Part shown: positions 1,184-19,462 of the stretch, in pieces
How positions within the stretch are numbered: the first letter of the stretch is position 1
Layout: each line of letters starts with the position of its first letter
DNA from: Myxococcota bacterium
Lineage (GTDB): Bacteria > Myxococcota > XYA12-FULL-58-9 > JALHOP01
Direction of reading: 5' to 3'
DNA: 64,000 nt
Assembly (NCBI GenBank): GCA_022842935.1
Contig: JALHOP010000010.1
Span: forward strand, 4,926-68,925
Notes under the pieces: model-generated
Databases searched by the model: none
Told to the model about the DNA's origin: nothing
Seen by the model: only the letters and a program-made list of their open reading frames with translations
Program-made: the position numbers and the translations under genes

Positions 1184-1531
1184 GTGAAGTACGTCTTGGC
1201 GATAACCGCAGTCGTGCTGATGGGGGTCGGGGTTCTTGCGATGCGTCCGACCGCTCGCCATGAGGTCCGTGACCGCTATCGGGTCGCCGAAGAACGCATC
1301 GAAGCCGAGCGCGCCCGCGGCCATCTCGACAGCGGCGAGGTCGAGCGCTTGCGCTTGGCGCTCATGGCCGCTCGCGCAGGCAGTCAGGAGCCGCACACGA
1401 AAGTTCTCAGGGGCGAGGCCCTCCAACGTGCAACCTCTGAGATCAGCGCCTGTCGCATCACCGACCTCACGCCTTGGCTCGACGAGCCTATCGGGGTCGC
1501 GTCGTGTGCGTTTACCCCAACCGGTCGATGA
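1184..1531 (+). CDS. Hypothetical secreted or membrane-anchored protein
   Basis: GTG start at 1184 gives a signal-like N-terminus (MKYVLAITAVVLMGVGVLA). Overlaps the next gene convergently by 20 bp. Confidence 0.5.
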   Translation: MKYVLAITAVVLMGVGVLAMRPTARHEVRDRYRVAEERIEAERARGHLDSGEVERLRLALMAARAGSQEPHTKVLRGEALQRATSEISACRITDLTPWLDEPIGVASCAFTPTGR

Positions 1532-1784
1532 GCGCGGTCATACGCTTTCGCAGACGGCCCACCTTCTTGCTCACCCGCTCGAGGTCTGCCTGGGTGGCAA
1601 GACCCAGCACACCCAATAAGCGCGATGCGTTCTCGTCGATGAACGCGCGACTCTCCTGAACACGGCGCACTGCCGCTCCAACCGCGGACGAGCTCTCTTC
1701 CGACGCGAGCAAGTCGTCGATGGCGCTCTTACCCACGGTCTTGGCGCGCTCTTTCACACGCTTCCAGAGGGGCGAGTCGGCCAT
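1512..1784 (-). CDS. Small helical protein, phasin/PhaI-like C-terminal motif
   Basis: LLGVLGLATQADLERVSKKVGRL resembles the LxxLGxPsxxD-coiled-coil tail of PHA-granule proteins. Starts 2 nt after the upstream gene's stop. Confidence 0.5.
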   Translation of the reverse strand: MADSPLWKRVKERAKTVGKSAIDDLLASEESSSAVGAAVRRVQESRAFIDENASRLLGVLGLATQADLERVSKKVGRLRKRMTALIDRLG

Positions 1785-1786
1785 GG

Positions 1787-2881
1787 CTACTTGCCCTTTT
1801 TCTTGGTCTTCGCCTTGGCCACCACGGGCGCTTTGCCACCGCGACGCAAGATGTCGTAGCTCGCCTTGCCTTTCGAGATGGTCATGATGGCCGCCATGCC
1901 CTCGGATTCGCTCTTGTCGTTCATCATCCAGGTGACGGCATCGGCCGGGCCCGGATTGAGGTACAGCTGCTCGACCATCTTCTTCGGAGGAACCAACTCG
2001 CTGCCATCGCTGTTGGTGCCGTGACCACCGGCTTCGTGGATGTTGCCGAAGATGCCGAAGGGCACTTTGTGCTCGGCCATCAGCATCATCATGTCGGGGT
2101 CACCCACGTGGTTACCCTCGGTCGTCAGGTCGACGCCGTATTGGCCGCTCTGCTTGGGACCACCATGGGACACCAGCACGACCGGCGACTTCGCGGCCTT
2201 GATGATGGCCCCTGCCGCTTCGACGTCCGCTGGGTGATATTGGCATCCGTCCTTGGCGTGGATGAAGGCTGGGTTGAAGTAGCCGGGAAGGGAAACGAAG
2301 TCAGCCTGCGGGGTGTGAACGCGGCGCACCTTCACCAGATCGAACACGTGCGGCGAGCGCTGTTGGATCGCCGCCATCGCGGTCTTGTAAGCCATGCGCC
2401 CTTCGCCGTTACCGATGGTCACGAACACCGGCACCTGCGCGCTCGCGAGCACATCGATGGCACTCTCGATGCCGGCCTGCGTGGTCCCCGAATCGCCGTC
2501 GACGATGATGAGGTCGACCTTGTTCTTCTTGAACCATGCGATGAAGGCCTTGAGGTTCGCGAGGTTCTCCTCGGAGCTCTCCTTGATGTCGGTCACGGTG
2601 CCCACAACAACGGTGTCACGAGCCGGCCCCGTCCACGCTACGGTGCTGCCGTTCTCTTCCCAGGTTACGCCGTTCCATTGATGGGTCTTGGGTGTGCCTG
2701 CCGTCTCGGAACCCATGCAGTCAGGGTCAGCGGTCTTCGGCGCGCTTGGCGGCGGCGTCACGTCGCTGGGAGCCGGATCGGCCGGCACGGGCGGAGGGAC
2801 CGTAGGAGTCTGGTCGGGCTGCTTGTCGGTTTCGCAAGCGACGAGGGCGATAAAGACCAGTGGTGAGAGGCGACGAATCAT
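1787..2881 (-). CDS. Lipoprotein with a degenerate calcineurin-like metallophosphoesterase domain
   Basis: ATG 2881 gives MIRRLSPLVFIALVAC (lipobox), then a Pro-rich linker, then motif equivalents TDIK / GDSG / GNGE / SH / GNIH. Confidence 0.75.
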   Translation of the reverse strand: MIRRLSPLVFIALVACETDKQPDQTPTVPPPVPADPAPSDVTPPPSAPKTADPDCMGSETAGTPKTHQWNGVTWEENGSTVAWTGPARDTVVVGTVTDIKESSEENLANLKAFIAWFKKNKVDLIIVDGDSGTTQAGIESAIDVLASAQVPVFVTIGNGEGRMAYKTAMAAIQQRSPHVFDLVKVRRVHTPQADFVSLPGYFNPAFIHAKDGCQYHPADVEAAGAIIKAAKSPVVLVSHGGPKQSGQYGVDLTTEGNHVGDPDMMMLMAEHKVPFGIFGNIHEAGGHGTNSDGSELVPPKKMVEQLYLNPGPADAVTWMMNDKSESEGMAAIMTISKGKASYDILRRGGKAPVVAKAKTKKKGK

Positions 2882-2984
2882 CGTGTGGAACCTCGTGAGT
2901 GGTGGCAACAAAGTGCCTTGAGCGGTGTGGGTGGTGCAAGCGACCCCCGTTTGGGGTTCGCGACGCGCCCGCCGCAGTGAGCTG

Positions 2985-3845
2985 CTAGCGGCGCTTGCGC
3001 CCCAACTCGGCGAGGGCGTCCTCCGCCCCGCGCCGCACCGCTTCGACGGGGTGTCCGCTCGCCAAGGTGACCAGATACCCCTCGGCCGTTGGCCCGCCCA
3101 GCGAGCCAAGCGCGAAGACCACCTGCAACACGAACTGCGGATCCTTGTTTCGGGCAAGCTCGATCATCGGCTCGGCCGCCGTCGGGTCGCCAATGGCTAT
3201 CAGGGCACCGATCGCCCGCAGGGCGAGCTCTGGCTTCGTCTTCTCGTCGAGCAACCCGATGAGCGCCGGAACCGCAGCCTTCACTCGACGCTCACCGAGG
3301 CGCTGCACGGCGAAGAGTTGCAGACGCTCGTCGCTGCTCTTGAGCGCGCCAATGAGGTCGCCATCGGGGCCACGGTCGAAGAGGCGCATGCTGACACTTA
3401 CCGACCAGCCATCTTGAAACGCCGCGGTCGCATCTTGGCGGACATCGCTGGTCGCGGGGGCCTTGCCGACGACGTCGTAGCTCATGGCGTCCGGTCGAGG
3501 CCGCAGCTCGAGCCGAACGCGTTGCATCGGTGGCTCTTCGCCGTCACGAACGTCGTCAGGGCGGTGATTGCGTACGTCATCGCGGACAGGCGCGGCGACC
3601 TCGACCCGCAGCGTATGCGTGCCTTCCCGCTCCTCGGGCTTGAAACGCGTGGTGCTGTCTGCGCCGAGCGTCGCGATGATGTCCGCACGCAATCCCTCGC
3701 GCAGCTCGCGGTTCCCTTCGAGCTCAGGTGGCAGATTCAGGAGGAGGCGCGTGATGACGATGGTCGAGGGTGTGCGTTTGCAGCCACCGACCGAGGTCGC
3801 CAGCACCAACGCCAAGACCAGAAACACATGCCTTCTGACCATCAC
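2985..3845 (-). CDS. HEAT-repeat lipoprotein
   Basis: Signal peptide ending VGGC. C-terminal HEAT_2-type repeats (AVPALIGLL, AIGALIAIGD, VVFALGSLG). Confidence 0.8.
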   Translation of the reverse strand: MMVRRHVFLVLALVLATSVGGCKRTPSTIVITRLLLNLPPELEGNRELREGLRADIIATLGADSTTRFKPEEREGTHTLRVEVAAPVRDDVRNHRPDDVRDGEEPPMQRVRLELRPRPDAMSYDVVGKAPATSDVRQDATAAFQDGWSVSVSMRLFDRGPDGDLIGALKSSDERLQLFAVQRLGERRVKAAVPALIGLLDEKTKPELALRAIGALIAIGDPTAAEPMIELARNKDPQFVLQVVFALGSLGGPTAEGYLVTLASGHPVEAVRRGAEDALAELGRKRR

Positions 3846-3869
3846 CGGTTCGGATCATACCCGAATACG

Positions 3870-4604
3870 TTACATGCCCACCAAGAGTCGCTCACCGAAG
3901 ACCGGCGCGAGCCCGGCCTCGATGATCTTCCTGCGAGCGGTGAGCACGTCATACGACATGCGCTGGAACGTGAAGACCTTGGCGTCGGTGTCATACACGC
4001 CACAGCAAGCACGTGGGTCGCGGTCACGGGGTTGCCCGACGCTACCCACGGTGATGATCGTCTTCTGCGACCCATTGCAATCGATGGCGTCGGCAATGAG
4101 CGGCGTCACGACGGCGGCTTCGTCGACGTAAAACGAGATGGTCAGGTGCGAGTGACCGATGAAGGTGACCTGAGCGAGATCGGCTAGCTGGCCGCCGAGC
4201 GCCTCGACCTGCTCGGGAGCAAAAAGATAGTCGAACGCTTCGGGATGAACCGGCGAGCCGTGCGAGAACTCGAGGTCGCCATGGCGGACTTTGAAGGGCA
4301 AGCCGGCGAGCCAGGCGCGGTTTTCGGGAGTAAGTTTGTCGGCAGACCACTGCAGCGCGTGTTTGGCTGCGTCGTAGTACTCGGAGAAATCGATACGCCC
4401 GCAAGCTGCGGCGTCGTGATTGCCGATGATGGCGACGTCGGCGATGGGACGGATGCGGTCGCATACCTCGTTTGGGTTGGCGCCGTAACCGACCGCGTCA
4501 CCCAGGAAGACGTAGGCGTCGCATCTCTGCTCGAGTAGCCACGTCAGCGCGACGTCGAGCGCTTCGAGATTGCCGTGGACATCGGAGAATATTCCGTAGC
4601 GCAT
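3870..4604 (-). CDS. Metallophosphoesterase (calcineurin-like, YfcE/PPP-type)
   Basis: Intact SDVHGN, GDAVGYG, GNHD, HGSP, GHSH and GSVGQPRD motifs. Confidence 0.93.
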   Translation of the reverse strand: MRYGIFSDVHGNLEALDVALTWLLEQRCDAYVFLGDAVGYGANPNEVCDRIRPIADVAIIGNHDAAACGRIDFSEYYDAAKHALQWSADKLTPENRAWLAGLPFKVRHGDLEFSHGSPVHPEAFDYLFAPEQVEALGGQLADLAQVTFIGHSHLTISFYVDEAAVVTPLIADAIDCNGSQKTIITVGSVGQPRDRDPRACCGVYDTDAKVFTFQRMSYDVLTARRKIIEAGLAPVFGERLLVGM

Positions 4605-4610
4605 CGCTGC

Positions 4611-4952
4611 TCAGACGGCCTCTGACGCCGCGCGGTCGTCGATGAAAGCCGAGAGCGCTGCTACATCGCTCAGCGACTCGAAAGCCAGCCCCATGACTCC
4701 GCCGCGACCGCGAAATCCCTCGGCGCGCCAAACCACGCGCGCACGCGCGACAACCGGAACTGGGCTCGTTGGCAATGAGAATCGAAGCACCACACGCTCC
4801 CCAACCTCGGGTGGAGCCGCAGCCAAAACACGCGCGCCGGATAAGCTCAAGTCCGCAAGCGACACGAATCGCTCGGTCTTGGCGTCGATGAGCCAGCAGC
4901 GCAGCGGTGTCGACCGTCGCACGTGATGGCGCTGCTCCTGCGCACGCGACAT
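4611..4952 (-). CDS. PilZ domain protein
   Basis: RRHHVR (RxxxR) and DLSLSG (DxSxxG) c-di-GMP-binding motifs; ARVVW...MGLAF tail. Confidence 0.85.
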   Translation of the reverse strand: MSRAQEQRHHVRRSTPLRCWLIDAKTERFVSLADLSLSGARVLAAAPPEVGERVVLRFSLPTSPVPVVARARVVWRAEGFRGRGGVMGLAFESLSDVAALSAFIDDRAASEAV

Positions 4953-5074
4953 TCGTTGAAAGGATCGAGGAGGCCCAAAACCGTGTCAAGGTCAGGTTTT
5001 CCATTGTCAGGCACCGACAACGGGGCCGTACGCCGCTTCCAATCACCCAGGCCGGCCGTGTAAAACCGCCCGGC

Positions 5075-5674
5075 GTGCCGTCAGCGACCTTCATCTCCGC
5101 CGAGGCCATCGGTTTGCTCGAAATCGACGGCCTACCGCGGGCTTTGCGTGCTCAAGACGCAGCGCTGAAGCGCGCGCCTGTGAAGATCCTCGCCTGCGCT
5201 CCAGTAAGCCCCAACAAGGTCGTGCTGTTAATGACTGGGGATGTCGCGTCGGTCCAGGAGAGCCTCGCGGCCGCAGAAGATGGACTGGGCTCGCGCCGAA
5301 TCGACCGGTTGTTCTTGCCGGGGGTCCATCCCGCCGTCATCGCCGCAGTCCGTGGTGATCGCCTCGTCCCCAACGACGCCCCCTTGGGTATCTTCGAGCT
5401 CGCGACAGTCGCAACGACCATCAGCGCGGCAGACATGGTGGTGAAGGCCACCGAGGTGCGCCTCGAGCGTATGCACCTCGCGACGGGCTTTGGCGGTCGG
5501 GGCTTCTTCACGTTGCGTGGTGAACAGGCCGACGTGGAGGAGGCACACGAGCGGCTCAGCGCCGCCATGGGCGAAGCCCTGCTCGATGCCGAGGTCATTG
5601 CCGCGCCACATGCCGAGCTTCTAGAAGGCGCTTTCAGGCGGCCCTGGAATCTCGATCCGGCCGACAGGGGTTAA
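5075..5674 (+). CDS. Tandem-domain bacterial microcompartment shell protein (BMC-T, PduT/Haliangium BMC-T1-like)
   Basis: Two BMC repeats: AIGLLEI..RALRAQDAALKRAPV..PVSPNKVVLLMTGDVASV and LGIFEL..AADMVVKATEV..GFGGRGFFTLRGEQADV..IAAPH. GTG start at 5075 is inferred. Confidence 0.88.
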   Translation: MPSATFISAEAIGLLEIDGLPRALRAQDAALKRAPVKILACAPVSPNKVVLLMTGDVASVQESLAAAEDGLGSRRIDRLFLPGVHPAVIAAVRGDRLVPNDAPLGIFELATVATTISAADMVVKATEVRLERMHLATGFGGRGFFTLRGEQADVEEAHERLSAAMGEALLDAEVIAAPHAELLEGAFRRPWNLDPADRG

Positions 5675-5683
5675 GACTTCCAC

Positions 5684-6661
5684 ATGAGTCTCGACGAACG
5701 TACCGTGCAGGACACCGCGGCGATGCTTGGCCGCATTCGCGACGAGGTCGCCAAGGTCATGGTTGGCCAGGGCACCCTGGTTGACCGCTTGCTCCTCGCC
5801 TTGGTCGCCGATGGCCACGTGCTCATCGAGGGCATCCCGGGCCTCGCCAAGACCACCGCGGTGAAGGCCTTGGCCGGCGCGGTCGAGACGACCTTCTCGC
5901 GTATCCAATTCACTCCCGACCTTCTACCCGCGGACCTCACCGGCACCGAGGTCTACCGCCCGCAGACCGGCGCCTTCACCGTGAAAAAGGGGCCATTGTT
6001 TGCGAACCTGGTCCTCGCCGACGAGGTCAATCGCGCGCCCGCCAAGGTGCAGAGCGCATTGCTCGAGGCCATGCAAGAGCGGCAGGTAACGCTCGGCGAT
6101 ACCACCCACGTTCTGCCGCAGCCCTTTCTGGTGCTGGCGACACAGAACCCGATCGAGCAGGAAGGCACCTACCCCCTCCCGGAGGCGCAGGTCGATCGCT
6201 TCATGCTCAAGCTCACGGTCGACTACCCCGACAAGGCGTCCGAAAAAGAGATCATGCGCCGCATGAGCGGCCGCGAGACACCGCGTGTGCATGCGGTGGT
6301 TCATCCGCGCGACATCATGGCGGCCCGCGAGGTAGCAGACGCCGTGCACTTGGATACCCGCCTCGAGGACTATATCGTCGATCTGGTGTTCGCGACCCGC
6401 AAGCCCGAGGCGTACGGGCTCGCGAAGCTCGCGAAGTTCATCGCCTTCGGGGCCTCTCCACGCGCGAGCATCGCGCTCGCCAAAGCCGCTCGCGTCCATG
6501 CCCTCATGCAAGGTCGCACCTACGCGACACCGCACGACGTGAAGACCATCGCACTGGACGTCCTCCGCCATCGCGTACTTCCGACCTACGAGGCCGAAGC
6601 ACAAGAGCTCACGGGTGAGCGGATCGTGCGCGACGTGCTCGCGTCGGTCGATGTACCGTGA
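5684..6661 (+). CDS. moxR: MoxR-family AAA+ ATPase
   Basis: GIPGLAKT Walker A, RIQFTPDLLPAD, LADEVNR Walker B, ATQNPIEQEGTYPLPEAQVDRF, GASPR. Confidence 0.97.
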   Translation: MSLDERTVQDTAAMLGRIRDEVAKVMVGQGTLVDRLLLALVADGHVLIEGIPGLAKTTAVKALAGAVETTFSRIQFTPDLLPADLTGTEVYRPQTGAFTVKKGPLFANLVLADEVNRAPAKVQSALLEAMQERQVTLGDTTHVLPQPFLVLATQNPIEQEGTYPLPEAQVDRFMLKLTVDYPDKASEKEIMRRMSGRETPRVHAVVHPRDIMAAREVADAVHLDTRLEDYIVDLVFATRKPEAYGLAKLAKFIAFGASPRASIALAKAARVHALMQGRTYATPHDVKTIALDVLRHRVLPTYEAEAQELTGERIVRDVLASVDVP

Positions 6662-6687
6662 GCACTCCCGGAGCTCGTTAAGTACTT

Positions 6688-7596
6688 ATGGAAGCGCCTC
6701 GTCCCACGCTCGACCCGGAGCTTGCGGCACGAGCCCGCCGGCTTAGAATCCGCGCGCGGCGCTTGTCGAGCGAGCTATTTACCGGCGCCTTCGCGAGCGC
6801 CTTCAAGGGCCGCGGCACCGAGCTCGATCAAGTACGTGAGTACATGCCGGGCGATGACGTCAGGCGCATCGACTGGAACGTGACGGCGCGAGCTCACTCG
6901 GGCGACAGTGCGCGCGCTTTCCTCAAGGAGCACCGCGCCGAGCGCGAGCTCACCGTCGTTCTTCTGGTCGACATGAGCGCCTCGGGCAGTTTCGGTAGCG
7001 TAAGCCGCAGCAAACGCGAGATGGCCGCCGAGCTCGCCGCGCTCCTCGCCTTCGCGTCCATCGCCACCAACGACCGGGTCGGCATCGGACTCTTCACCGA
7101 CCGCATGGAGCGCTACGTGCCGCCGCGCAAGGGTCGAGCGCAGGTTGCGCGCTTGATCCGTGAGCTGCTCACCTTCGAACCAGCCGGTACCGGAACGAAC
7201 CTGACTGCGGCGCTCGCGTACCTGCGGCGGGTGCAGCGTCGACGCGCGGTGGTCTTTCTTATCTCCGACTTCATGGCGCGCAACTACGACGAAATTTTGG
7301 GCGCCGTGGCTGCGCATCACGAAGTCATCGGCTTGCGACCCATCGACGCGCACGAGCTCGTTCTGCCCGACGTTGGCATGGTGACCCTACGCGATGCCGA
7401 AAGCGGCGCAACGCGGCTCGTCGACACGAGCGACCCAAGAGTCCGAGAACACTTCGCGGCGATCGCTGCGCGGCGGGGACAGGAGCTCGCCGATAGCCTG
7501 CGAAAAGCGCGTGTGCCCCTGCTGGATTTGCCGCTCGACGGGACGTACGTCGACATTCTGACCCGTTTCTTCGCGAGCAGACGGAGGCGGCGGTGA
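6688..7596 (+). CDS. DUF58 family protein (MoxR partner)
   Basis: GTELDQVREYMPGDDVRRIDWNVTAR, DMSAS, ISDF. Confidence 0.95.
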   Translation: MEAPRPTLDPELAARARRLRIRARRLSSELFTGAFASAFKGRGTELDQVREYMPGDDVRRIDWNVTARAHSGDSARAFLKEHRAERELTVVLLVDMSASGSFGSVSRSKREMAAELAALLAFASIATNDRVGIGLFTDRMERYVPPRKGRAQVARLIRELLTFEPAGTGTNLTAALAYLRRVQRRRAVVFLISDFMARNYDEILGAVAAHHEVIGLRPIDAHELVLPDVGMVTLRDAESGATRLVDTSDPRVREHFAAIAARRGQELADSLRKARVPLLDLPLDGTYVDILTRFFASRRRRR

Positions 7597-8078
7597 TGGA
7601 CGAGTTGCGCGACATCAAGCCGCTGGTGCCGCTCTCGGAGCCGGTGCCTATTTGGATCTGGGCGCTGATGGCGCTTGTCGCGTCCTCACTGCTGGTTCTT
7701 CTGTGGCGAAGGACGCGACGCAAGAGCGTCGATCAGGTGGTGCTGAGCGAGGCAGAGGCAGCCCGGCGCGCGCTCGAGGCGGTCCGGGGCTTTCGGCCGC
7801 GCGATCGCGCGAGCGCCGAAAGACTTCAGAGCCACATCGCGATCGTCTTGCGCCGCTGGCTCGAGGCGCGCTCCGAGGTTCATGCCACCGACATGACGAC
7901 CGAGGAGCTCGAAGCCGATCCGCGTCTCGCGAAGGTCTTGGGTGAAGAGGGTCGCGCTACGCTGGTTGCCATCCTTACCTTCGCCGACGCGGTGCGCTTC
8001 GCCGGGCGCTCCGCTACGGAAGACGAGCACCGCGAGAGTGTCGAGCGGGCCTCGGCGCTCGTGCGAGGTAGGGCATGA
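7593..8078 (+). CDS. Single-TM accessory protein of the Bat operon (DUF4381-like)
   Basis: ELRDIKP start, one TM helix, MTTEEL and ADAVRFA motifs; overlaps both neighbours. Confidence 0.75.
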   Translation: MMDELRDIKPLVPLSEPVPIWIWALMALVASSLLVLLWRRTRRKSVDQVVLSEAEAARRALEAVRGFRPRDRASAERLQSHIAIVLRRWLEARSEVHATDMTTEELEADPRLAKVLGEEGRATLVAILTFADAVRFAGRSATEDEHRESVERASALVRGRA

Positions 8079-9076
8079 GGCTCGCCGATCCACGTTGGCT
8101 CTTCGCACTCGTCCCCATCTTCGCCGCCTGGCTCGGTTGGCTGTGGTACCAGCGACGCAACGCGCTTTTACCGTCCGCAAGCTTCTCGAGTCTCGATGCA
8201 TTCGCGGACCTCCGCGCCACCTGGGCTGTGCGCGCCCGGCCATGGGTTGTCGGCACGCGGTACGTGGCGGTCGCCCTCCTCTTCGCCGCTCTCGCGCGGC
8301 CTGTTGCATCGCAAGGGAAAAAGGCTCTCACCACCGACGGTCTGCACATCGTTCTCGCCATCGACACGTCTGGGAGCATGCGCGCCCTCGACCTCGACGC
8401 CGAGCGCTCGCTCGAATGGCGACGCACCCGGCTCGAGGTCGTTCGCGACGTGGTCACTGCCTTCATCGAAGCGCGCGTCAATGATGCGGTTGGCTTGGTG
8501 GTGTTCGGGAGCTTTGCCTTCACGCAGGCCCCGCTCACGCTCGACCATGCGCTCGTCGCGAACCTGGCCCAGCGGCTCGAGATTGGCGTCGCCGGAGAGC
8601 AAACGGCGATCGGTGATGCATTGGTCACAGCCGTGAAGAGACTCAAGGACGACAAGGCCAAATCGCGAGTGGTGGTATTGCTCACCGACGGACGCAACAA
8701 CGCGGGCAGCGTCGAGCCGCAAGAGGCAGCGCGCCTCGCGAAAGCCTATGGCGTCAAGGTTTATACCATCGGCGCCGCGCGGCAGGGTCGCGCGCCGATG
8801 GTCGTGGGGGGCCAACTCTTCTACGAAGACGTCGATCTCGACGACGACACCCTAACCGCTATCGCGGAGACAACGGGGGGCAAGTACTACCGCGCCGAAG
8901 ACGCGACGGCGTTGGAGCGCATCTACGCGGACATCGACACTCTAGAGAAGGACGCCATCGACGCACCTGAGCAGCACGAGCTCGATGAGCGATACCCGTT
9001 GTTCGTGGCACCCGCGCTATTCTTGCTGTGCTGCGAGGCTCTGCTGCTGTCGACCCGGCTGAGGACGCTGCCATGA
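8075..9076 (+). CDS. batA: BatA-like VWA domain membrane protein
   Basis: ALARP, MIDAS motif DTSGSM, TAIGDA, LLTDGRNN, VYTIG, IAETTGG, C-terminal TM. Confidence 0.92.
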   Translation: MRLADPRWLFALVPIFAAWLGWLWYQRRNALLPSASFSSLDAFADLRATWAVRARPWVVGTRYVAVALLFAALARPVASQGKKALTTDGLHIVLAIDTSGSMRALDLDAERSLEWRRTRLEVVRDVVTAFIEARVNDAVGLVVFGSFAFTQAPLTLDHALVANLAQRLEIGVAGEQTAIGDALVTAVKRLKDDKAKSRVVVLLTDGRNNAGSVEPQEAARLAKAYGVKVYTIGAARQGRAPMVVGGQLFYEDVDLDDDTLTAIAETTGGKYYRAEDATALERIYADIDTLEKDAIDAPEQHELDERYPLFVAPALFLLCCEALLLSTRLRTLP

Positions 9077-10077
9077 CGAGCTTCGTCATCGAGCGCCCCT
9101 GGATGTTGTGGTTCCTGGCGGTGCCGTTTCTGGTGACGCTCGTCGGAATCCAAGGCGAGCGTCTGGGACACTCGCGCCTTGCCCGTTTGGTCGCGCCACG
9201 GCTGCAGCCGCTACTCGTGACCCGCTCACCCGGCGGCTTCTGGCGGCACATCGTGATTGGCGCATCGCTGGCGGCTTTGGTGATTGCGCTAGCCGGCGTC
9301 CGCTATGGCGACGTCGAAGAAGAGATACGCGGGCGCGGCGTCGATGTGATGGTGGCGCTCGACGTCTCCGACAGCATGTTGGCGCGTGACGTCGAGAGCG
9401 ACGCTGGTCTCACGCGTCTCGAGCGTGCCAAGCGCGAGATCTTGGACCTGCTCGCGCGCCTGGACGGCGATCGCATCGGCCTCGTGCTCTTCGCAGGTGA
9501 CGCGGTGCTCCAACTACCGTTGACGCTCGACTACGAGGCTGCGGCACTGTTCGTCCGCGAAGTCGCGCCAGAGCTCGTCTCCACCAAGGGGACGGCTGTC
9601 GCCAAAGCTATCGACGTGGCGACGCTCGCTTTCGATGCCGGCGTCGCCGAGGGGCGCGCCATTATCTTGATCACGGATGGCGAAGACACGGAAGGCGATG
9701 TGGAAACAGCGGCCACGAAGGCCAAGGAAGCGGGTGTGCGGGTGTTCGGCATCGGCATCGGTCGCAGCGAGGGCGCGCCCATTCCGCTTGCTGGCGGCGG
9801 CTTTCGCCGCGACACGCGTGGCGAAATGGTGCTGAGCCGCCTGGACGAGGCCCAGCTCACACGGATTGCCTCGGCAACTGGCGGTGACGTCGTGCGGTCC
9901 ACCAGCGGGGACTATGACCTCGAACGCATCTATGCGGGGATCAAAGCGAGGGTCGCCGCGCGGGAGCTTGGGTCGCGGCGGCGCGTGCACGGGAAAGACC
10001 GTTACCGCGTCTTGGTCTCGTTGGCTGCTGCGGGACTCATGCTCGAGTCTATCCTCCGGGGGCGACGTACGCGATGA
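9073..10077 (+). CDS. batB: BatB-like VWA domain membrane protein
   Basis: DVSDSMLARD, RLERAK, PLTLDY, ITDGED, IASATGG. ATG 9073 overlaps the batA stop. Confidence 0.9.
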   Translation: MTSFVIERPWMLWFLAVPFLVTLVGIQGERLGHSRLARLVAPRLQPLLVTRSPGGFWRHIVIGASLAALVIALAGVRYGDVEEEIRGRGVDVMVALDVSDSMLARDVESDAGLTRLERAKREILDLLARLDGDRIGLVLFAGDAVLQLPLTLDYEAAALFVREVAPELVSTKGTAVAKAIDVATLAFDAGVAEGRAIILITDGEDTEGDVETAATKAKEAGVRVFGIGIGRSEGAPIPLAGGGFRRDTRGEMVLSRLDEAQLTRIASATGGDVVRSTSGDYDLERIYAGIKARVAARELGSRRRVHGKDRYRVLVSLAAAGLMLESILRGRRTR

Positions 10078-10874
10078 TTGTACTCCTGCTCACCATCTTC
10101 GGCGCGGACCCAGGCGTCATATCTTACGAACTCCGAGACTACGCGACCGCGATAGAGGAGCTCGCGCGAGCTCTCACCGACAAGCCCCACGACGCGCGAA
10201 TCGACTTCGACCTCGGAAGCGCGCTGTACAAGGCGGGGCGATTTGCGGACGCCGAGAAGGCCTTCGGCAGAGCGGCGCGTGACCCAAAGCTCACGGCGCG
10301 AGCCCTGTACGACCAAGGAAACGCAAGGTTCAAGCAGGAGAACTTCAAGGGGGCGATCGAGAGCTACGAGAGTGCGCTGAAGACGGACACAAACGATGCG
10401 GATGCGAAAGCGAACCTCGAGCTGGCAAAGCGAAAGCTCGCAGAGAAGGAGAAAGAGGAAGAGCAGCAGAAGCAAGAGAAGCCAGAGCAGCCGAACGCCG
10501 AGCAGCCGAAGCCCGATGACCGACAGCCGAACGCCGAGCAGCCGAAGCCCGATGACCGACGGCCGAACGCCGAGCAGCCGAAGCCCGACGACCGACAGCC
10601 GAACGCCGAGCAGCCGAAGCCCGATGACCGACAGCCGAACGCCGAGCAGCCGAAGCCCGATGACCGACAGCCGAACGCCGAACAGCCGAAGCCCGATGAC
10701 CGACGGCCGAACGCCGAGCAGCAAGCTGCCGGCCAGCCCAAGCGCGAGCATCGTCCGACCGACAAGTCCGTGATGACCGAGGAGCAAGCCGCGCGTCTCC
10801 TCGAGCGGGTCGACGAGAAGCGGCCGCGCGCGCGCCAGCGTCAGAAGCACTCGCGCTCGGGCAAGGACTGGTGA
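10074..10874 (+). CDS. batC: BatC-like TPR protein with low-complexity tail
   Basis: TPRs (FDLGSALYKAG, YDQGNARFK, DAKANLELA), Q/E/P-rich tail, EQAARLL...KDW terminus typical of BatC. Confidence 0.85.
   Translation: MIVLLLTIFGADPGVISYELRDYATAIEELARALTDKPHDARIDFDLGSALYKAGRFADAEKAFGRAARDPKLTARALYDQGNARFKQENFKGAIESYESALKTDTNDADAKANLELAKRKLAEKEKEEEQQKQEKPEQPNAEQPKPDDRQPNAEQPKPDDRRPNAEQPKPDDRQPNAEQPKPDDRQPNAEQPKPDDRQPNAEQPKPDDRRPNAEQQAAGQPKREHRPTDKSVMTEEQAARLLERVDEKRPRARQRQKHSRSGKDW
10491..10721 (+). repeat. Coding tandem repeat: 36-bp unit, 6 full copies plus a 15-bp partial (PNAEQPKPDDR[Q/R])
   Basis: Unit CCGAACGCCGAGCAGCCGAAGCCCGATGACCGAC(A/G)G repeated head to tail with a few single-base variants. 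Confidence 0.97.
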
Positions 10875-12574
10875 GCATGTCGCGCGCGGTCGTCTTGCTC
10901 GTCACCCTCGTGTCGTCCCCAGCGTTCGCAGGCAGCGCGCGCGCGACGCTCGACCGCGGCCGCGCTAGCCTCGACGACGAGCTCACCCTGACGATTCAGG
11001 TCGTTGGCAGCGCTGACACGCCTGAGCTTCCCAGCAGCATGAACACGGACTTCGAGGTCCAAAGCTCAGGACAAGCAAACCAGGTCTCAATCATCAATGG
11101 CCGCATGAGCTCGAGCACGCGCTACACCTTCACGCTCGTGCCCAAACACGCCGGCACCCTCTCCGTTCCCGCCATCCCCGTGGTCGTCGACGGCACGCGC
11201 ATGGCGACCGAGCCTCTGCAGGTGCTGGTCGCGGCGGCCAGCTCCAAGCCTGGTCAGGGCGGCGACGAGATCTACCTCACTGCGGAGCTGACCCCCGCGA
11301 GCGGCCCACGTCAGTCGGCTTTCGTGGGGGAGCAGCTCGTCTACACCCTAAAGGTATGGGCGCGCGTCGACGCGTCATGCCCTAGCTTGAAACTCCCCGA
11401 TTTCCCCAACGCGGTGTCATACGATCTGGGAGAGCGACGTCAGTATCGCACGCACGTGGACGGCGAAGATTTTTCGGTCGTCGAGGTGCGCAAGGCCGTT
11501 TTCGCGGACAAGGCGGGAGTGTTGGACATCGCCCCGGTGCGGCTCCAGTGCACCATAGAGCGCAACCGACGCGGCGGCGACGAGTTTGGGCGCATCTTTG
11601 GCAGCAACGGAGTCCGCAAAGTCGTACGCAGCAACGCAGCGCGTATGTCCATCGAGGCATTGCCGCCGCCGCCCGCTGATTTTTCGGGCCTTGTCGGCGA
11701 TGTGGCGGTGAGTACAGCGCTCAGCAAAACAGAAGCCCGCGCTGGCGACTCGGTGACGCTCTCGCTCGCGGTACGCGGTGATGCCGAGATGACTGCTGCT
11801 CCGGAGCCGCGGGTGCAGTTCCTTAACTCGGTGAAGGTCTATGACGACAAGCCGACCCTACGCTACGACGGGTCTGGCGCGGCGCTCATCGGAGAGCGCG
11901 TCTTCCAGAAAGCATTGGTCGCGCAGAGCGCGGGCGACATACGACTCCCGGCACCGAGCCTTACTTACTTCGACCCGAAGCGACGGGCGTACGCCAAGGC
12001 GGAGTCACAGTCGCTCACACTGCGAATCGTCGGCGACGACTCTGTTGCCACCGTCGCGACACCAGCGAACCCGAGCGCGCCTCTAGCGAGCGCGGCGCCC
12101 ACAACAGGTCAACCCGGGCGGCGTGCGGCGTTCGCGGTGCGCGGGGCACGACAAGACCTTGCAACGTGGCTGCGCGGCCCCCGACTCGCGGCGCTCGTCA
12201 TCGCACCCCTTTTCGTCGCGTTCGTCGCACGAAGCCGTCGCCCCAAGTTGGCGGGAAGCACCCAAAAGAAGCAGCGCCGCGAAGCAGCGCGACGCGCCCT
12301 GGCAGAGCTCGAGCGACTCGGCGACGACGCGCGCGAGGTATCGCGCGTGGTTCGGGAGCTCATTGGCCACCGTGTTCAGCACCACGGCGCGGCACTCTCG
12401 ACCGATGAGGCCCTGGCAGCCTTGGTCGCCAGTGGTGTGGACGCGGCCCTTGTTGGGCGAGCACGCGCGGTACTCGTAGCCTGCGACGCCTCTCTCTACG
12501 GCCATGCAAACAGTCACACGGCCGTAAAGGACGATGCCATCGCGCTGGCGCGCGGCTTCGCGGAGTCGGCATGA
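10871..12574 (+). CDS. batD: BatD-like protein
   Basis: Signal peptide, SIINGRMSSSTRYTFTLVP, VGEQLVY, GLVG..GDSVTL, YFDP Ig-like modules, late TM. Confidence 0.88.
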   Translation: MSMSRAVVLLVTLVSSPAFAGSARATLDRGRASLDDELTLTIQVVGSADTPELPSSMNTDFEVQSSGQANQVSIINGRMSSSTRYTFTLVPKHAGTLSVPAIPVVVDGTRMATEPLQVLVAAASSKPGQGGDEIYLTAELTPASGPRQSAFVGEQLVYTLKVWARVDASCPSLKLPDFPNAVSYDLGERRQYRTHVDGEDFSVVEVRKAVFADKAGVLDIAPVRLQCTIERNRRGGDEFGRIFGSNGVRKVVRSNAARMSIEALPPPPADFSGLVGDVAVSTALSKTEARAGDSVTLSLAVRGDAEMTAAPEPRVQFLNSVKVYDDKPTLRYDGSGAALIGERVFQKALVAQSAGDIRLPAPSLTYFDPKRRAYAKAESQSLTLRIVGDDSVATVATPANPSAPLASAAPTTGQPGRRAAFAVRGARQDLATWLRGPRLAALVIAPLFVAFVARSRRPKLAGSTQKKQRREAARRALAELERLGDDAREVSRVVRELIGHRVQHHGAALSTDEALAALVASGVDAALVGRARAVLVACDASLYGHANSHTAVKDDAIALARGFAESA

Positions 12575-13140
12575 CAGCGGACGAAGCCTTCGACGCGGGA
12601 GTGATAGCGCTTGGCCGCGATGACCACCCCACCGCTATTGCGAGCCTCCTGGTGGCGCGTGACGCCGCCCCGAGGGACGTCGAGATCGCAAGCGCGCTGG
12701 AGACGGCGCGAGAGTCGAGTGGTAGTCGCGTTCATGTTGACGTGCCGATCCCCGTCGCGGCAACGGACCTTGGTCTGCTGTTGCTGCTCGTGAACGTTGC
12801 CCTCTGCATCGCCATCGCCCGTCGCGTCAGACGCCGGCTGCTCGTCGGAACCGTCGCCGCCTGGTTCGTGGTGCTGGGAGCACTGCTAACGCGTGTCGTG
12901 ACGCAACCCGACTACGTGGTGGTCGTTCGCGAAGGCACCAAGACCTACGCCGCCGACGACGTCAGCAGCCTGGAGCGCTACCAGGTCACACGCGGAGACG
13001 AGCTCGTGCTTCTCGAAAAGCGAGGCGCCTGGCTCAAGGTCGAAGGCCCCGAAGGACCGGCCTACTTGGCTGCTGGAGACGCGGTGGAGGCAACGCGCGG
13101 TAACGATGTCAGCGAGACGCGTAGCGACACTGCCAAATAG
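12571..13140 (+). CDS. batE: BatE-like protein (TPR remnant, 2 TM, SH3-like)
   Basis: Last gene of the operon; two TM helices; C-terminal GDELVLLEKRGAWLKV SH3b-like strand pattern. Confidence 0.65.
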   Translation: MTADEAFDAGVIALGRDDHPTAIASLLVARDAAPRDVEIASALETARESSGSRVHVDVPIPVAATDLGLLLLLVNVALCIAIARRVRRRLLVGTVAAWFVVLGALLTRVVTQPDYVVVVREGTKTYAADDVSSLERYQVTRGDELVLLEKRGAWLKVEGPEGPAYLAAGDAVEATRGNDVSETRSDTAK

Positions 13141-15488: not shown

Positions 15489-16844
15489 TCACTCGAATTC
15501 GGCGGGAAATGGTAGCGCTAGACGTGACGCTCTTCGCGTGAGGCGCTCGATACGGCGCGCGCTCGCGACCTCAGGCTCGGCCATGATGGCGTTGCGCGCG
15601 TACTCGAGTGCACGGGCAGGATCACGCAGCCGTCGCTCGTAGAGCTTCGCGAGCTCGAGGCACAGCGACGGTGCGTTGTCGGGCTCGACATGGGTGAGCG
15701 CCCTTTCGAGAGCCGCGACCGCTGAAGCGAACTCACCTCGGCGCTTGTGCACTCGCGCCATGAGCACGAGCGCCGGTGTCGACACGTCGGAGCCCCCCGC
15801 GGCCGCCGTTAGCGCGAACGCATGCGCGCGGTCTCCGTCACCGGCGCGTACCGAGAGCTCAGCGAGCGCGAGCTGATCGCGCAGGTCGTCGTCGCTCGAA
15901 GCGCTCTCCAGCTTGTCGGCTAGCACGCCGAGCAACGCCACCAGCGACACCAGGTCGTGCTGGTTGTGTACCAGGATCGGGTTCAAACAGGCGCCGTCTT
16001 TGCCGCGCAAGAACTCCATATAGATGGCGGGGATCTGCGCGCCACCGACATCGTCATGTCGGGTCAGCGCCAAGACCTCGCGCTCGAGCTCGGTGAGCTG
16101 GACGTTCGTGAGCCGACGGCGGAAGACGCGGCGCGCGCAATGCAGAAGGTCGACGTGCGCAGCGGGCTCGGGGACCTTCATGCGATTCAATACGAATCGC
16201 GTCCGTAAAAGCGGCCAATCGAAGCTCTTGCCGTTGTAACTGACGATGCACGACGCTTGAGCGATACGCATGGCCAGCTCCTCGAGCATCGGACCTTCCT
16301 CGCCAGGCTTGCGCAACACCAGCTGCTCGACCTGCACCGCAGCGCCATCGAACCAAGCCATGCCGATGAGAAAGGGCAACGTGCCGGCCCCATGCGACAG
16401 CCCGGTGGTCTCGGTGTCGATGTACAGGGCGCGGCTTAAATCGATTGGCGTGAGCCTCTCGTCGAGCGCCAGCTTGGCGATGAGCTCACCGGTAGCAATG
16501 AGACCTCGCCGCAAACGCGCGCAGCCCTGGGAATGATCGGGGTCGAAAGACTGGGCAACGACGTGCAGCTCGCCGCGAGCGTTTGAACGTACGGAACCAG
16601 CGAGACCCGATGCGGGCTCAGCGCGGGAACGCTTGGGCTTTGCCTGCCGATTCGCGAGGGCGAGCAAGCGCGACTTGATGTTGTCTGCGCGACCAATCGG
16701 CGCGTCGAGATTCGGCGCATCCGCCGTCGCGGCATCGACGACCGGCGTTCGGCTACCAACGATCGCAGACCGGCCATCGGCGACCTGGCCCTCGGCCATC
16801 GCCCCGTCAGGCCGAAGCCGCGACAGCTTCTTCTTCATGTCCAT
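15489..16844 (-). CDS. YprB/MrfB-like RNase H-fold (DEDD) exonuclease with C-terminal TPRs
   Basis: YIDTETTGL, SYNGKSFDWP, HVDLLHCARR, HNQHDL; TPR tail (LELAKLYE). Confidence 0.9.
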   Translation of the reverse strand: MDMKKKLSRLRPDGAMAEGQVADGRSAIVGSRTPVVDAATADAPNLDAPIGRADNIKSRLLALANRQAKPKRSRAEPASGLAGSVRSNARGELHVVAQSFDPDHSQGCARLRRGLIATGELIAKLALDERLTPIDLSRALYIDTETTGLSHGAGTLPFLIGMAWFDGAAVQVEQLVLRKPGEEGPMLEELAMRIAQASCIVSYNGKSFDWPLLRTRFVLNRMKVPEPAAHVDLLHCARRVFRRRLTNVQLTELEREVLALTRHDDVGGAQIPAIYMEFLRGKDGACLNPILVHNQHDLVSLVALLGVLADKLESASSDDDLRDQLALAELSVRAGDGDRAHAFALTAAAGGSDVSTPALVLMARVHKRRGEFASAVAALERALTHVEPDNAPSLCLELAKLYERRLRDPARALEYARNAIMAEPEVASARRIERLTRRASRLALPFPAEFE

Positions 16845-19462
16845 CAGCCGCCGACCCCCAGAGCCCGAAGCACCTCGAGCGCTAGAGCCTTCCGCATGTC
16901 GCCACTCGGCATCGACGCCATGGTGGGCTGCGCCACGGACTGCGAATTGTCAGTCACGCGGACGAGAGCCTCATCGAGCTCGCCCATCAGGGGTGCTGCT
17001 TCGAGCTGCCGCATCGCGGCGGCGGGCAGTGCGCTCTGCGGTGCCCCCGCAAGCTGGGCCACCCCCACCCCAATGCCCGGCCCAATGCAGCTCGGGCACC
17101 CCGCGCTGCAAGGACACGCTCGAATGAGCGCATGCGCACGCACCAACATCTCGACGCGATCCTCGTGCAGGCGCGGCGCGAGGCCGACACCACCGGCAAC
17201 CGAATCGTACAAGAAGATGGTTGGATGAAACGGCTCACGGTCGACGAGCCAACCGCCATCCGCTGGAGCGGTTGCGCCCTCTCCGGCCTTGTCGGTGACG
17301 GTCCGCCCGAGATCGCGCGGATCAGTCATGAGGCCAACGCAGGCCACGGTGTGCAACGCGTTGGCCAGGCCACGTAGCGCGTCGATGACGAGCGGCCGCG
17401 CGACGCCCAGGCTCGTCACCAGCTCGTTCCCGATGGTGAGCCACATGGCGCTCGTGTGCATCTGCATCTCGGGCAGGTGGACGTCCCCGTAACCCACGTT
17501 TTCGTGTGTGTGGAACTTTATCTTCTTGTAGCCGACGACTTTGGAGACAACGCTGACCTCACCCATGCCGCCGGCGAGCGTCGATGCCAAGTGCTCGCTT
17601 ACGCGCTCCGACGGGACATCATCCTCGAGAACGGCGACGCGCGTGTACGTCATGGCATCGGTGTAGTAATCGGGTGCCACCTTGCGCACGTAAGCCTTGT
17701 GATTTTCGTAGTCGAGGCGCTCCACCTGATACTGCTCGCCCAAGTGCTGATAAATGGCTTGTTCGTGCAGCATGGTGTGCGTGCTCCGCCAATCCATCTC
17801 GGCGATGGTGTGATCGGAGGCGATATCGATGACCGCGAAGTTGTCCCAACTAGCGGTGCGTAGAGACACGTGGTTGGCTGGATAGACGTCGCTTGCCCAG
17901 TGGTAAACGTTGCGCCCCGAAGTGGCCGGCACCGGGTGTACGATGCGCGACTCGGCGAGATAGTCGAGCGCGTCCTTGATGGCGGACGGCGGCACATCGC
18001 CGAAGGCCTCGCCCTCCTCGAACGGCAGCTCGAATGCCGCGCACTTCAAGTGCGCGACGAGGATCTCGATATTGTCGGGATCGATACGCGCATGCTCGAC
18101 CGGCGCGCCGATGAGCGCTTCGGGGTCGGCGGCGAAGAACTGATCGAGCGGCGCACTCGAGGTCACGAGCAGTGCGAGCGAAGCCTCCCCGCGCCGCCCA
18201 CCACGCCCGAAGCGCTGCCACAAACCTGCAACCGAGCCCGGATAGCCGGCGCAGACCACGGCGTCGAGGGCACCGATGTCGATACCCAGCTCCAAGGCGT
18301 TGGTAGCAACCACGCAACGCACCGCTCCCTCGCGCAGACCCGCTTCGATGCGGCGGCGGGTCTCTGGCAAATAGCCGCCGCGATACGCGTGGATGGTCTC
18401 GGGGTCGACACCGTCTTCTCCCAAGCGATCGCGCAGATACTTCAGCATCACCTCGACGGAGTTTCGGCTCTGCCCGAAGACGATGGTCGACACCCCAGCG
18501 CGCACGAGATCAGCGGTCAAGCGCACCGCAGTCTTGATGTAGCTCGCGCGGATCCCGAGCTCGGGGTTCAAAAGCGGCGGGTTGAACACCATGACGTGCT
18601 TCTCACCAGCAGGTGCTCCGCTCTCGTGGACGAGCGAGACCGCGTCGCCGAGGATTCGCTCGGCATGCTCGCGCGGGTTGCCGATGGTCGCCGAGGCAAA
18701 CATCACGGTAGGCGAGCCGCCGTGAAACCGCGCGACGCGCAAAAGCCGTCGCAACACGTTGGCAAGATGTGAACCAAAGACGCCACGGTACGAATGCAGC
18801 TCGTCGATCACGATGAAGCGAAGGTTCGCGAACAACCTCGCCCAGCTCGCATGATGTGGCAGGATGCCAGTGTGCAGCATGTCCGGGTTGGTGACGAGGA
18901 CGCCGCTCTTTTCGCGGGCCGCGCGCCGCGCATCCCCCGGTGTGTCGCCATCGTAGGTGATTGCGCCGTGCGTCAAGGCCGCCGCGTGCATGAGGTCGTG
19001 CAGCGCCACTTCTTGATCGCGGGCAAGCGCCTTCGTAGGGAAGAGGTAGAGCGCGCGCGCTTCGCTATCGCGGGCAAAGGCATCGAGGACCGGCAGGTTG
19101 TAGCAGAGGCTCTTGCCGGAAGCGGTCGGTGTCGCGACCACGACGTGTTCACCGGCACGGGCGCGCTGATACGCCTCGGCTTGGTGCGTGTAGAGTTGCT
19201 TGACCCCGCGTCGCTGCAGGGCGCTGGCAACTTGGGGCGATAGCTCGACGGGGAGCTCGGTGAGACGAGCCGGTCGCTCTGGCACGAGCGTATCGAGCGC
19301 GAAATGCCGATAGAGCCGGCCATCTTCACGCCAGCTGGAGAGAACGTGACCGATGCCGCCCGGCTTTTGCCACGGCGCCGATGGACGCCGGAACTCGAGA
19401 ACGTTCGATGGTGCTAGCAGCTCAGGCGGCTCTGCCATGAGGCGCACTGTACGGATGTGCAC
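16844..19462 (-). CDS. DEAH-box helicase with DUF1998 Zn-binding domain (YprA/MrfA/Hrq1 family)
   Basis: PTASGKS, PTKALA, DELH, SAT, LELGIDIG, QRFGRGGR, C-terminal CPCSAGCPSC. Confidence 0.95.
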   Translation of the reverse strand: MHIRTVRLMAEPPELLAPSNVLEFRRPSAPWQKPGGIGHVLSSWREDGRLYRHFALDTLVPERPARLTELPVELSPQVASALQRRGVKQLYTHQAEAYQRARAGEHVVVATPTASGKSLCYNLPVLDAFARDSEARALYLFPTKALARDQEVALHDLMHAAALTHGAITYDGDTPGDARRAAREKSGVLVTNPDMLHTGILPHHASWARLFANLRFIVIDELHSYRGVFGSHLANVLRRLLRVARFHGGSPTVMFASATIGNPREHAERILGDAVSLVHESGAPAGEKHVMVFNPPLLNPELGIRASYIKTAVRLTADLVRAGVSTIVFGQSRNSVEVMLKYLRDRLGEDGVDPETIHAYRGGYLPETRRRIEAGLREGAVRCVVATNALELGIDIGALDAVVCAGYPGSVAGLWQRFGRGGRRGEASLALLVTSSAPLDQFFAADPEALIGAPVEHARIDPDNIEILVAHLKCAAFELPFEEGEAFGDVPPSAIKDALDYLAESRIVHPVPATSGRNVYHWASDVYPANHVSLRTASWDNFAVIDIASDHTIAEMDWRSTHTMLHEQAIYQHLGEQYQVERLDYENHKAYVRKVAPDYYTDAMTYTRVAVLEDDVPSERVSEHLASTLAGGMGEVSVVSKVVGYKKIKFHTHENVGYGDVHLPEMQMHTSAMWLTIGNELVTSLGVARPLVIDALRGLANALHTVACVGLMTDPRDLGRTVTDKAGEGATAPADGGWLVDREPFHPTIFLYDSVAGGVGLAPRLHEDRVEMLVRAHALIRACPCSAGCPSCIGPGIGVGVAQLAGAPQSALPAAAMRQLEAAPLMGELDEALVRVTDNSQSVAQPTMASMPSGDMRKALALEVLRALGVGG

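Follow-up and report, generated by a model that had tools for sequence, protein, structure and literature searches.

The bacterial microcompartment (BMC) of the Haliangium ochraceum (HO) type is a type I system with satellite loci, and its gene set comprises one BMC-H, a BMC-P triplet split one plus two, a BMC-Tdp and a BMC-Ts trimer, an aldehyde dehydrogenase (AldDH) in the main locus, an aldolase with two satellite pentamers, DeoC elsewhere and an optional EUT module (PMC8217296, in part; "in part" here and below marks sources available to us only in part). Its BMC-Ts trimer is T1 (HO-5812, PDB 5DIH and 6N06). The MoxR-proper (MRP)/Bat operons of Bacteroides, Francisella, Leptospira, Riemerella and Borrelia run moxR-DUF58-DUF4381-batA-batB-TPR-batD with intact Walker motifs and metal-ion-dependent adhesion sites (MIDAS), and the available parts of that literature mention no shell gene. 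A MoxR-family ATPase and a von Willebrand factor A (VWA) adaptor do lie near shell genes in alpha-carboxysome loci, where CsoCbbQ co-fractionates with the shells (PMC4633670, in part); CbbQ/CbbO, however, belongs to another MoxR subfamily, lies inside the carboxysome locus in many genomes and is described as a Rubisco activase in the sources available in part. Here we describe a BMC-T gene of a Myxococcota bacterium (GCA_022842935.1), referred to as T1, that stands directly before a moxR-bat operon in a 64,000-nucleotide stretch of contig JALHOP010000010.1 (the window).

T1 shares its fold and pore serine with HO-T1 but differs from the HO arrangement in lying outside the AldDH operon, in heading a moxR-bat unit and in carrying a C-terminal R-P-W-x-x-D-P extension. 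The operon has the MRP/Bat gene order with intact Walker and MIDAS motifs, but moxR is not its first gene, and relatives in the same class add grpE2 and a thioredoxin-Ig-transmembrane (TM) gene upstream of moxR. From a comparison of 22 genomes of the uncultured class XYA12-FULL-58-9, this one (G000, 97% complete) included, we consider it probable that T1 is a facet or pore tile of an HO-type microcompartment that is co-transcribed as a passenger before moxR, and not a client of the MoxR-Bat machinery. If so, it would illustrate, across a whole class, the departure of a shell gene from its operon, together with a new conserved T1 tail, which is of modest interest; the T1 tile is the main chassis of engineered HO shells. 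(Numbers with the prefixes L, G and C are our labels for loci, genomes and contigs.)

The T1 open reading frame (ORF) runs from a GTG at 5075 to a TAA stop at 5674 and encodes 199 amino acids, and the ATG of moxR at 5684 comes 9 nt later. These coordinates and two PF00936 matches agree with the original prediction, made from the DNA alone, of a two-domain BMC gene placed 9 nt before moxR and followed by overlapping or nearly abutting genes. The two domains (residues 11-71 and about 104-178) are in tandem and non-permuted. An AlphaFold2 monomer model (pLDDT 91.8) aligned with HO BMC-T1 (5DIH) over 180 residues (Z 24.3, rmsd 2.1), with 3NWG tying and PduT below both (Z 20.6); sequence identity to HO-T1 is about 40%. 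In the pore loop PVSPNK, Ser45 aligns with the Cys of TICPGK in PduT (3PAC), and the position is Ser in 70 and Cys in one of 76 class homologues. Because Ser replaces the pore Cys of PduT, a 4Fe-4S pore trimer that shares the BMC-Ts fold, an Fe-S cluster is not expected in the T1 pore, as had been predicted. The edge pairs D28/K32 and D120/K124 are likewise conserved (D28, K32 and K124 in 76/76 class homologues, D120 in 75/76) and follow a D-x-x-x-K pattern, which we take to be a lattice-contact motif by analogy with the role of PduA K26. Class-specific substitutions also occur in the body of the protein, for example H134 (76/76) and R132 (74/76). Trimer assembly and incorporation of T1 into shells are predicted from these features.

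T1 had been described as a lone shell gene. This holds for the 64-kb window, which has no other BMC gene, but not for the genome, as G000 has three further shell loci, on contigs C4, C13 and C2 (PF00936 matches on C4 and C2, PF03319 matches on C4 and C13), in keeping with the dispersed Haliangium-type system that had also been suggested. C4 carries BMC-Tdp-like, BMC-H, BMC-P and AldDH (PF00171) genes in that order, C13 carries two BMC-P genes followed by a class II aldolase (PF00596) and DeoC (PF01791), and C2 carries eutB, eutC and an EutL-like trimer gene. This amounts to three PF03319 genes, one BMC-H and one Tdp-like gene at the head of the main locus, the Tdp label coming from position and from comparison with its counterparts in other HO-type loci (45-81% identity). 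Judged by gene content, G000 carries a complete HO-type microcompartment gene set and T1 is no orphan. Both pentamer-aldolase satellite loci arising by fission and EUT modules have been described for HO BMCs (PMC8217296, in part), and Supplementary Data 1 of that paper (in part) enters P0042 (A2289_17520) as 'HO (main), pduT-like'. P0042 is a tail-bearing T1 homologue, 57% identical, that lies 12 locus-tag steps from the Tdp gene of its genome; our HO-type assignment is by gene content and by the published class of this homologue rather than by the hidden Markov model clades of Sutter 2021. EutB occurs in six of the 22 class genomes, namely the four of this genus, G017 and G005, a genome without shell genes. 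The eutB-eutC-EutL module itself (L012:7090-10123, on C2) has no other eut genes nearby. Family f9 (G011:C105, G017:C725, G019:C54) additionally has four BMC-P-family genes in tandem, and its seven PF03319 matches per genome are unusual for a one-hexamer system.

Across the class, T1 is present in 17 of 22 genomes, and PF00936 and PF03319 matched the same 16 of the 21 genomes other than G000. All 16 of these T1-bearing genomes have BMC-P and 15 have BMC-H and AldDH, the exception being 74% complete (AldDH is found in 16/22 with G000 counted). Shell genes are missing altogether from the five genomes that lack T1. Of these, G005, G006 and G010 (95-100% complete) retain DUF58, bat genes and the moxR orthologue, and the remaining two, 65% and 84% complete, have moxR matches at paralogue level only. 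Because T1 is found only with other shell genes and moxR-bat persists without a shell, T1 tracks the shell and not MoxR. In a MoxR tree, shell-less G006 is sister to T1-bearing L121 (100/98) and shell-less G005 falls within the class (87/82), and repeated loss of the shell, with retention of moxR-bat, is therefore likely; for T1 itself, the tree was made by a quick method only. G005 retains both flanks of the locus, with two unannotated, unrelated genes in the T1 slot. This phylogenetic profile largely refutes the suggestion in the original prediction that the T1 trimer was co-opted as a non-shell partner of a MoxR-Bat complex. Such a change of role could explain the class-specific body substitutions, the new tail and the physical separation of T1 from the other shell genes, but T1 is never found without BMC-P in the 17 class genomes that have it, its lattice lysines are invariant and the Bat operon is kept without it, and we regard co-option as very improbable. 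The periplasmic position of the VWA domain in the BatA-like Borrelia protein BB0173 (PMC5700661, in part) speaks against a tether role for BatA, and BatA was rejected as the direct shell partner on the same ground.

We next consider the linkage between T1 and moxR, which share a contig in 14 of the 17 T1-bearing genomes, with moxR downstream on the same strand in all 14. Nothing lies between them in four (all four genomes of this genus), grpE2 in one, tlpA in four and both in five, and the distance in the ten genomes outside the genus is 0.7-2.4 kb. At L121, T1 stands directly before moxR independently of this genus. The adjacency is thus inherited and not due to chance. In G000, no plus-strand terminator-like site lies between the two genes, and the prediction that they form one likely transcription unit is upheld. 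Beyond the class the linkage disappears. T1-like genes occur in 91 of 251 phylum genomes, 14 class members among them; in the T1 loci of 69 out-of-class genomes (13 with ±1.5 kb only; duplicates and one unpublished genome dropped), AldDH is present in 60 and another shell gene in 48, and moxR, DUF58, grpE2, batA and batB are present in none. The T1-moxR linkage is thus conserved in the 14 same-contig class genomes and in 0/69 genomes outside the class. Nor does the ATPase accompany the organelle as in the CbbQ-like case, given the retention of moxR-bat in G005, G006 and G010 and the 69 out-of-class shells without the linkage. Out-of-class T1 is usually the last gene of a Tdp-H-P-AldDH operon, a terminal position from which it can readily split off, and some out-of-class T1 genes stand alone among unrelated neighbours (e.g. 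G025). At least 16 metagenomic T1 loci were found, some possibly duplicating class genomes. Eight of the ten with enough downstream DNA lead to grpE2, tlpA or moxR; at the other two, a tail-bearing T1 is followed by an MFS/AmpG-like permease gene (L123) or T1 is followed by an opposite-strand PDZ gene (L129).

To place these numbers against general synteny, we followed co-oriented orthologue pairs at most 3 kb apart in non-randomly chosen regions of two genomes, G011 (about 360 kb) and G013 (about 330 kb). Such pairs remain within 3 kb in G000 in 76/99 (G011) and 33/50 (G013) cases, or 66-77%, and in 20/30 and 7/18 cases, respectively, at gaps of 300-3000 nt. The T1-moxR linkage is not above this background of gene-order conservation, and because class-wide retention is expected for one inherited transcription unit, it is not by itself evidence of shared function. 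Selection on the linkage for regulation alone, with T1 placed in a stress/chaperone operon and altering shell permeability under heat or oxidative stress without any contact, is a rather unlikely account. It would fit the nature of the spacers, a second GrpE found in 8/22 class genomes at this locus only and a WCGPC thioredoxin fusion, as well as the higher bat transcript levels of Riemerella during heat and oxidative stress (PMC11834572, in part) and the proposal that satellite shell genes are permeability tuners (PMC8217296, in part). However, gene order cannot separate regulation from neutral retention, and in Leptospira, bat mutants revealed no oxidative-stress protection and the genes are apparently transcribed independently (PMC3557215, in part).

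T1 is unusual in one respect, a strongly conserved C-terminal tail of seven residues. R189, W191 and D194 are each present in 75 of 76 class-type homologues and P195 in 74, which ranks the tail with the invariant core. The alignment to HO-T1 stops at residue 188, such that the class tail begins at the HO-T1 terminus, and the R-P-W-x-x-D-P motif is absent from all 66 extracted out-of-class C-termini and from 28 more distant homologues. Other Myxococcota lineages have their own unrelated T1 tails within an ordinary operon. Across loci (22 of 25 fitted the search pattern), all synonymous sites of the tail codons vary, which places the constraint at the protein level; as the downstream gene also differs among loci, constraint on the DNA was ruled out. 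Two monomer models give the tail no secondary structure and differ in confidence (pLDDT of residues 181-190/191-199, 83/74 and 77/59). Among six-frame ORFs of G000, R[PA]W..DP has nine matches and is C-terminal only in T1. The tail is therefore not a general MoxR tag, there being no credible second occurrence among these ORFs, and an ESM Atlas search with residues 165-199 returned BMC clusters only, at a lead-level score of 0.75. The tail is kept at L123 and L129, where moxR is not adjacent. GrpE2 and TlpA were rejected as obligatory tail partners, as both are missing in this genus, in which the tail is intact.

BMC C-termini sit on the concave face. In shells this face points outward (PMC6372710), and a literature search for a concave-face C-terminus of BMC-T1 found no match. 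The tail of T1 may be a docking site for a partner. A shell tail with such a role is known from the beta-carboxysome, where the C-terminal tail of the tile paralogue CcmK1 is an outer-surface docking site for CcmS, which is not an ATPase, unlike MoxR (PMC11635287, in part); here the tail is a candidate only. Extending this idea, T1 could be a true tile whose outward tail is a docking tag, with the DUF58 MIDAS binding Asp194 and the MoxR hexamer pulling on the trimer during assembly, opening, repair or disassembly, and with the gene linkage selected for co-expression. We judge this unlikely, and find it somewhat harder still to credit that the tail Asp completes the DUF58 MIDAS metal site and that an MRP/Bat AAA+ machine remodels the shell of a catabolic microcompartment. 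What speaks for a tag is the conservation of the tail at the protein level, its start at the HO-T1 end and its occurrence in the lineage with the moxR linkage, a DUF58 protein with an intact MIDAS and no TM segment, the association of CsoCbbQ with carboxysome shells noted above, and the binding of an acidic target residue by MoxR adaptors through their MIDAS (PMC9976466, in part). Yet tail and relocation were each inherited once in one class and so count as a single event; shell-less genomes keep moxR-bat, and the tail is kept without an adjacent moxR; unrelated tails arise inside ordinary operons, and the motif lacks a credible second occurrence in G000; the linkage matches background synteny, is broken in two of ten metagenomic loci and is absent from all 69 out-of-class genomes; and HO shells assemble in a heterologous host with no MoxR-type helper, any single HO trimer plus BMC-H being sufficient (PMC6056538, in part). 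A functional link between the MoxR/VWA pair and the shell stays a low-odds candidate on account of the conserved tail. Were the tail to dock DUF58 or MoxR, this would bear on the targets of MRP/Bat systems and on active remodelling of metabolosome shells; were the machine to remodel the shell in the way just described, it would be the first ATP-driven metabolosome shell remodeller, with a defined client for an MRP-DUF58 pair. On the present evidence, the tail likely binds beyond the monomer that carries it, in the simplest case to an adjacent subunit of the shell.

Several observations nonetheless weigh against treating T1 as a passenger tile. The linkage is kept in 14/14 same-contig class genomes across five families, and retention in all five is somewhat high; the three remaining T1 genomes are split by contig ends in a way compatible with the same order. 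Family f9 keeps the linkage despite loss of the upstream block, and T1 was retained through repeated losses of the spacers grpE2 and tlpA. Only the lineage that shows the moxR linkage has the tail, and the monomer models do not place it with confidence. Finally, the synteny test compares genomes pairwise, its regions were not random, and genuinely functional operons are among the pairs it counts.

With these points weighed, the passenger reading suggests the following history. In the class ancestor, a terminal T1 gene would have split from Tdp-H-P-AldDH and taken the first slot behind a divergent promoter, giving the layout T1-[grpE2]-[tlpA]-moxR-DUF58-bat; later losses of grpE2 and tlpA would have brought T1 against moxR at least twice (this genus and L121). 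The T1 trimer, with a Ser-lined, cluster-free pore, would use its conserved edge lysines to assemble together with BMC-H and BMC-P, and the tail would make a lattice or trimer contact. From gene content, the shell likely handles aldehydes from deoxyribose or sugar-phosphate and, in this genus, from ethanolamine breakdown, and with T1 transcribed separately the cell could adjust its T1:Tdp ratio, possibly under stress. The parts are each known already; in the literature searched, neither the tail nor the arrangement specific to this class was found. In the sources available in part, no description of T1-moxR linkage was found, and titles on microcompartments and MoxR concern carboxysomes/Rubisco or unrelated topics. 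MoxR, PF07726 and GrpE are absent from the text supplements of PMC8217296 (in part; any locus diagrams given only as pictures lay outside the search), and the main text of PMC4207490 does not mention MoxR, AAA or von Willebrand.

The genes of the locus are listed below. From moxR to the last ORF all lie on the plus strand, with overlaps or a 26-nt gap between neighbours. A complete MoxR-DUF58-BatABCDE operon had been predicted; moxR, DUF58 and batA-D are borne out, and the batE label of the last ORF, which has no Pfam match at E<=0.01, comes from position alone, the terminal BatE of such operons being a TPR/SH3 protein.

Table. Features of the T1-moxR-bat locus and its upstream side (window positions).
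Feature	Position	Strand	Basis
Divergent block pilZ - metallophosphoesterase - HEAT repeat - metallophosphoesterase - phasin-like	1512..4952	-	Pfam; conserved upstream side of locus
Conserved block with TTGACA, putative promoter of divergent pilZ-metallophosphoesterase-HEAT genes	4983..5003	-	Near-invariant in 4/4 genus genomes; function inferred
TTCCAA-18 nt-(TG)TAAAAC block, 8 nt short of start codon	5035..5066	+	Conserved in 4/4 genus genomes
T1, BMC-Ts shell trimer gene, HO BMC-T1 (HO-5812)/PduT-like orthologue	5075..5674	+	PF00936 x2, PDB sequence matches, AlphaFold2 model
Codons of class-specific tail F187-x-R189-P-W191-x-x-D194-P195	5633..5659	+	Conservation in 76 class homologues
moxR, AAA+ ATPase (AAA_3 + lid)	5684..6661	+	PF07726 E 7e-65; Walker A GIPGLAKT, Walker B DEVNR intact
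DUF58 VWA protein, 0 predicted TM	6688..7596	+	Intact MIDAS D95-x-S97-x-S99, T170, D194
DUF4381-like single-TM protein	7593..8078	+	PF14316 E 7e-5, under Pfam cut-off; TM prediction
batA (BatA N-terminal domain + VWA)	8075..9076	+	PF07584, PF00092; NF047508 E 1e-52, under its own cut-off
batB (2 TM + VWA)	9073..10077	+	Profile matches, TM prediction
batC-like tetratricopeptide repeat (TPR) protein, 12-aa tandem-repeat linker	10074..10874	+	Profile matches
batD	10871..12574	+	PF13584 E 5e-28
189-aa two-TM ORF at batE position	12571..13140	+	TM prediction; weak homologue at same position in G005

T1 is separated by 122 nt from the divergent pilZ-metallophosphoesterase-HEAT block, which is also present in a shell-less relative. 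The two conserved intergenic blocks look like back-to-back promoters, and the one nearer T1 is likely the promoter of a leaderless or short-leader T1-moxR transcript; a strict sigma-70 scan returned no sites and did not call this block. Two plus-strand terminator-like sites lie inside coding regions (7237 and 9004), matching the expectation from shuffled sequence. The two putative promoters are separated in G002 by an insertion that contains an inverted repeat (L044:6100-6200).

Other features of the locus vary across the class. The second GrpE gene (L053:10586-11221, minus strand; L049:6530-7195 and L099:8924-9544, plus strand) stands directly upstream of tlpA/moxR, with shell-less G005 among its carriers, and no paper joining GrpE, MoxR and DUF58 was found in our literature search. 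The tlpA gene, just before moxR in most class genomes, encodes a TlpA-like thioredoxin (WCGPC or WCGAC) with an Ig-like domain and a TM segment (L053:9152-10558, minus strand; L049:7197-8540, plus strand). An older proposal holds that Bat proteins supply reducing power to the periplasm, and the tlpA product would fit it. In families f6, f7 and f9, DUF58 is followed by an additional TM/TPR gene (L053:6203-7198, minus strand) and then by a longer BatD-domain-DUF4381 gene, and the operon of this genus is shorter than theirs. Within batC, six to seven near-perfect 12-amino-acid repeats (PNAEQPKPDDRQ type) lie at 10396-10680 of the window; members of the genus differ in the length of the repeat region, which is apparently frameshifted in G002 (L044:11247-12153). 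Outside the class, several loci have an inorganic pyrophosphatase gene immediately before T1 (L058:6703-7257, L060:9909-10655, L066:240-791), and G054 has a PduS/RnfC-like flavo-iron-sulfur gene followed by a T1-like gene, a PduS-PduT-like pair with no AldDH locus near (L112:4726-6147, minus strand). Further along the window (15489-19462, minus strand), a gene for an MrfA-like DEAD helicase with a Zn domain adjoins an RNase_H_2/TPR gene, presumably an MrfAB-like pair.

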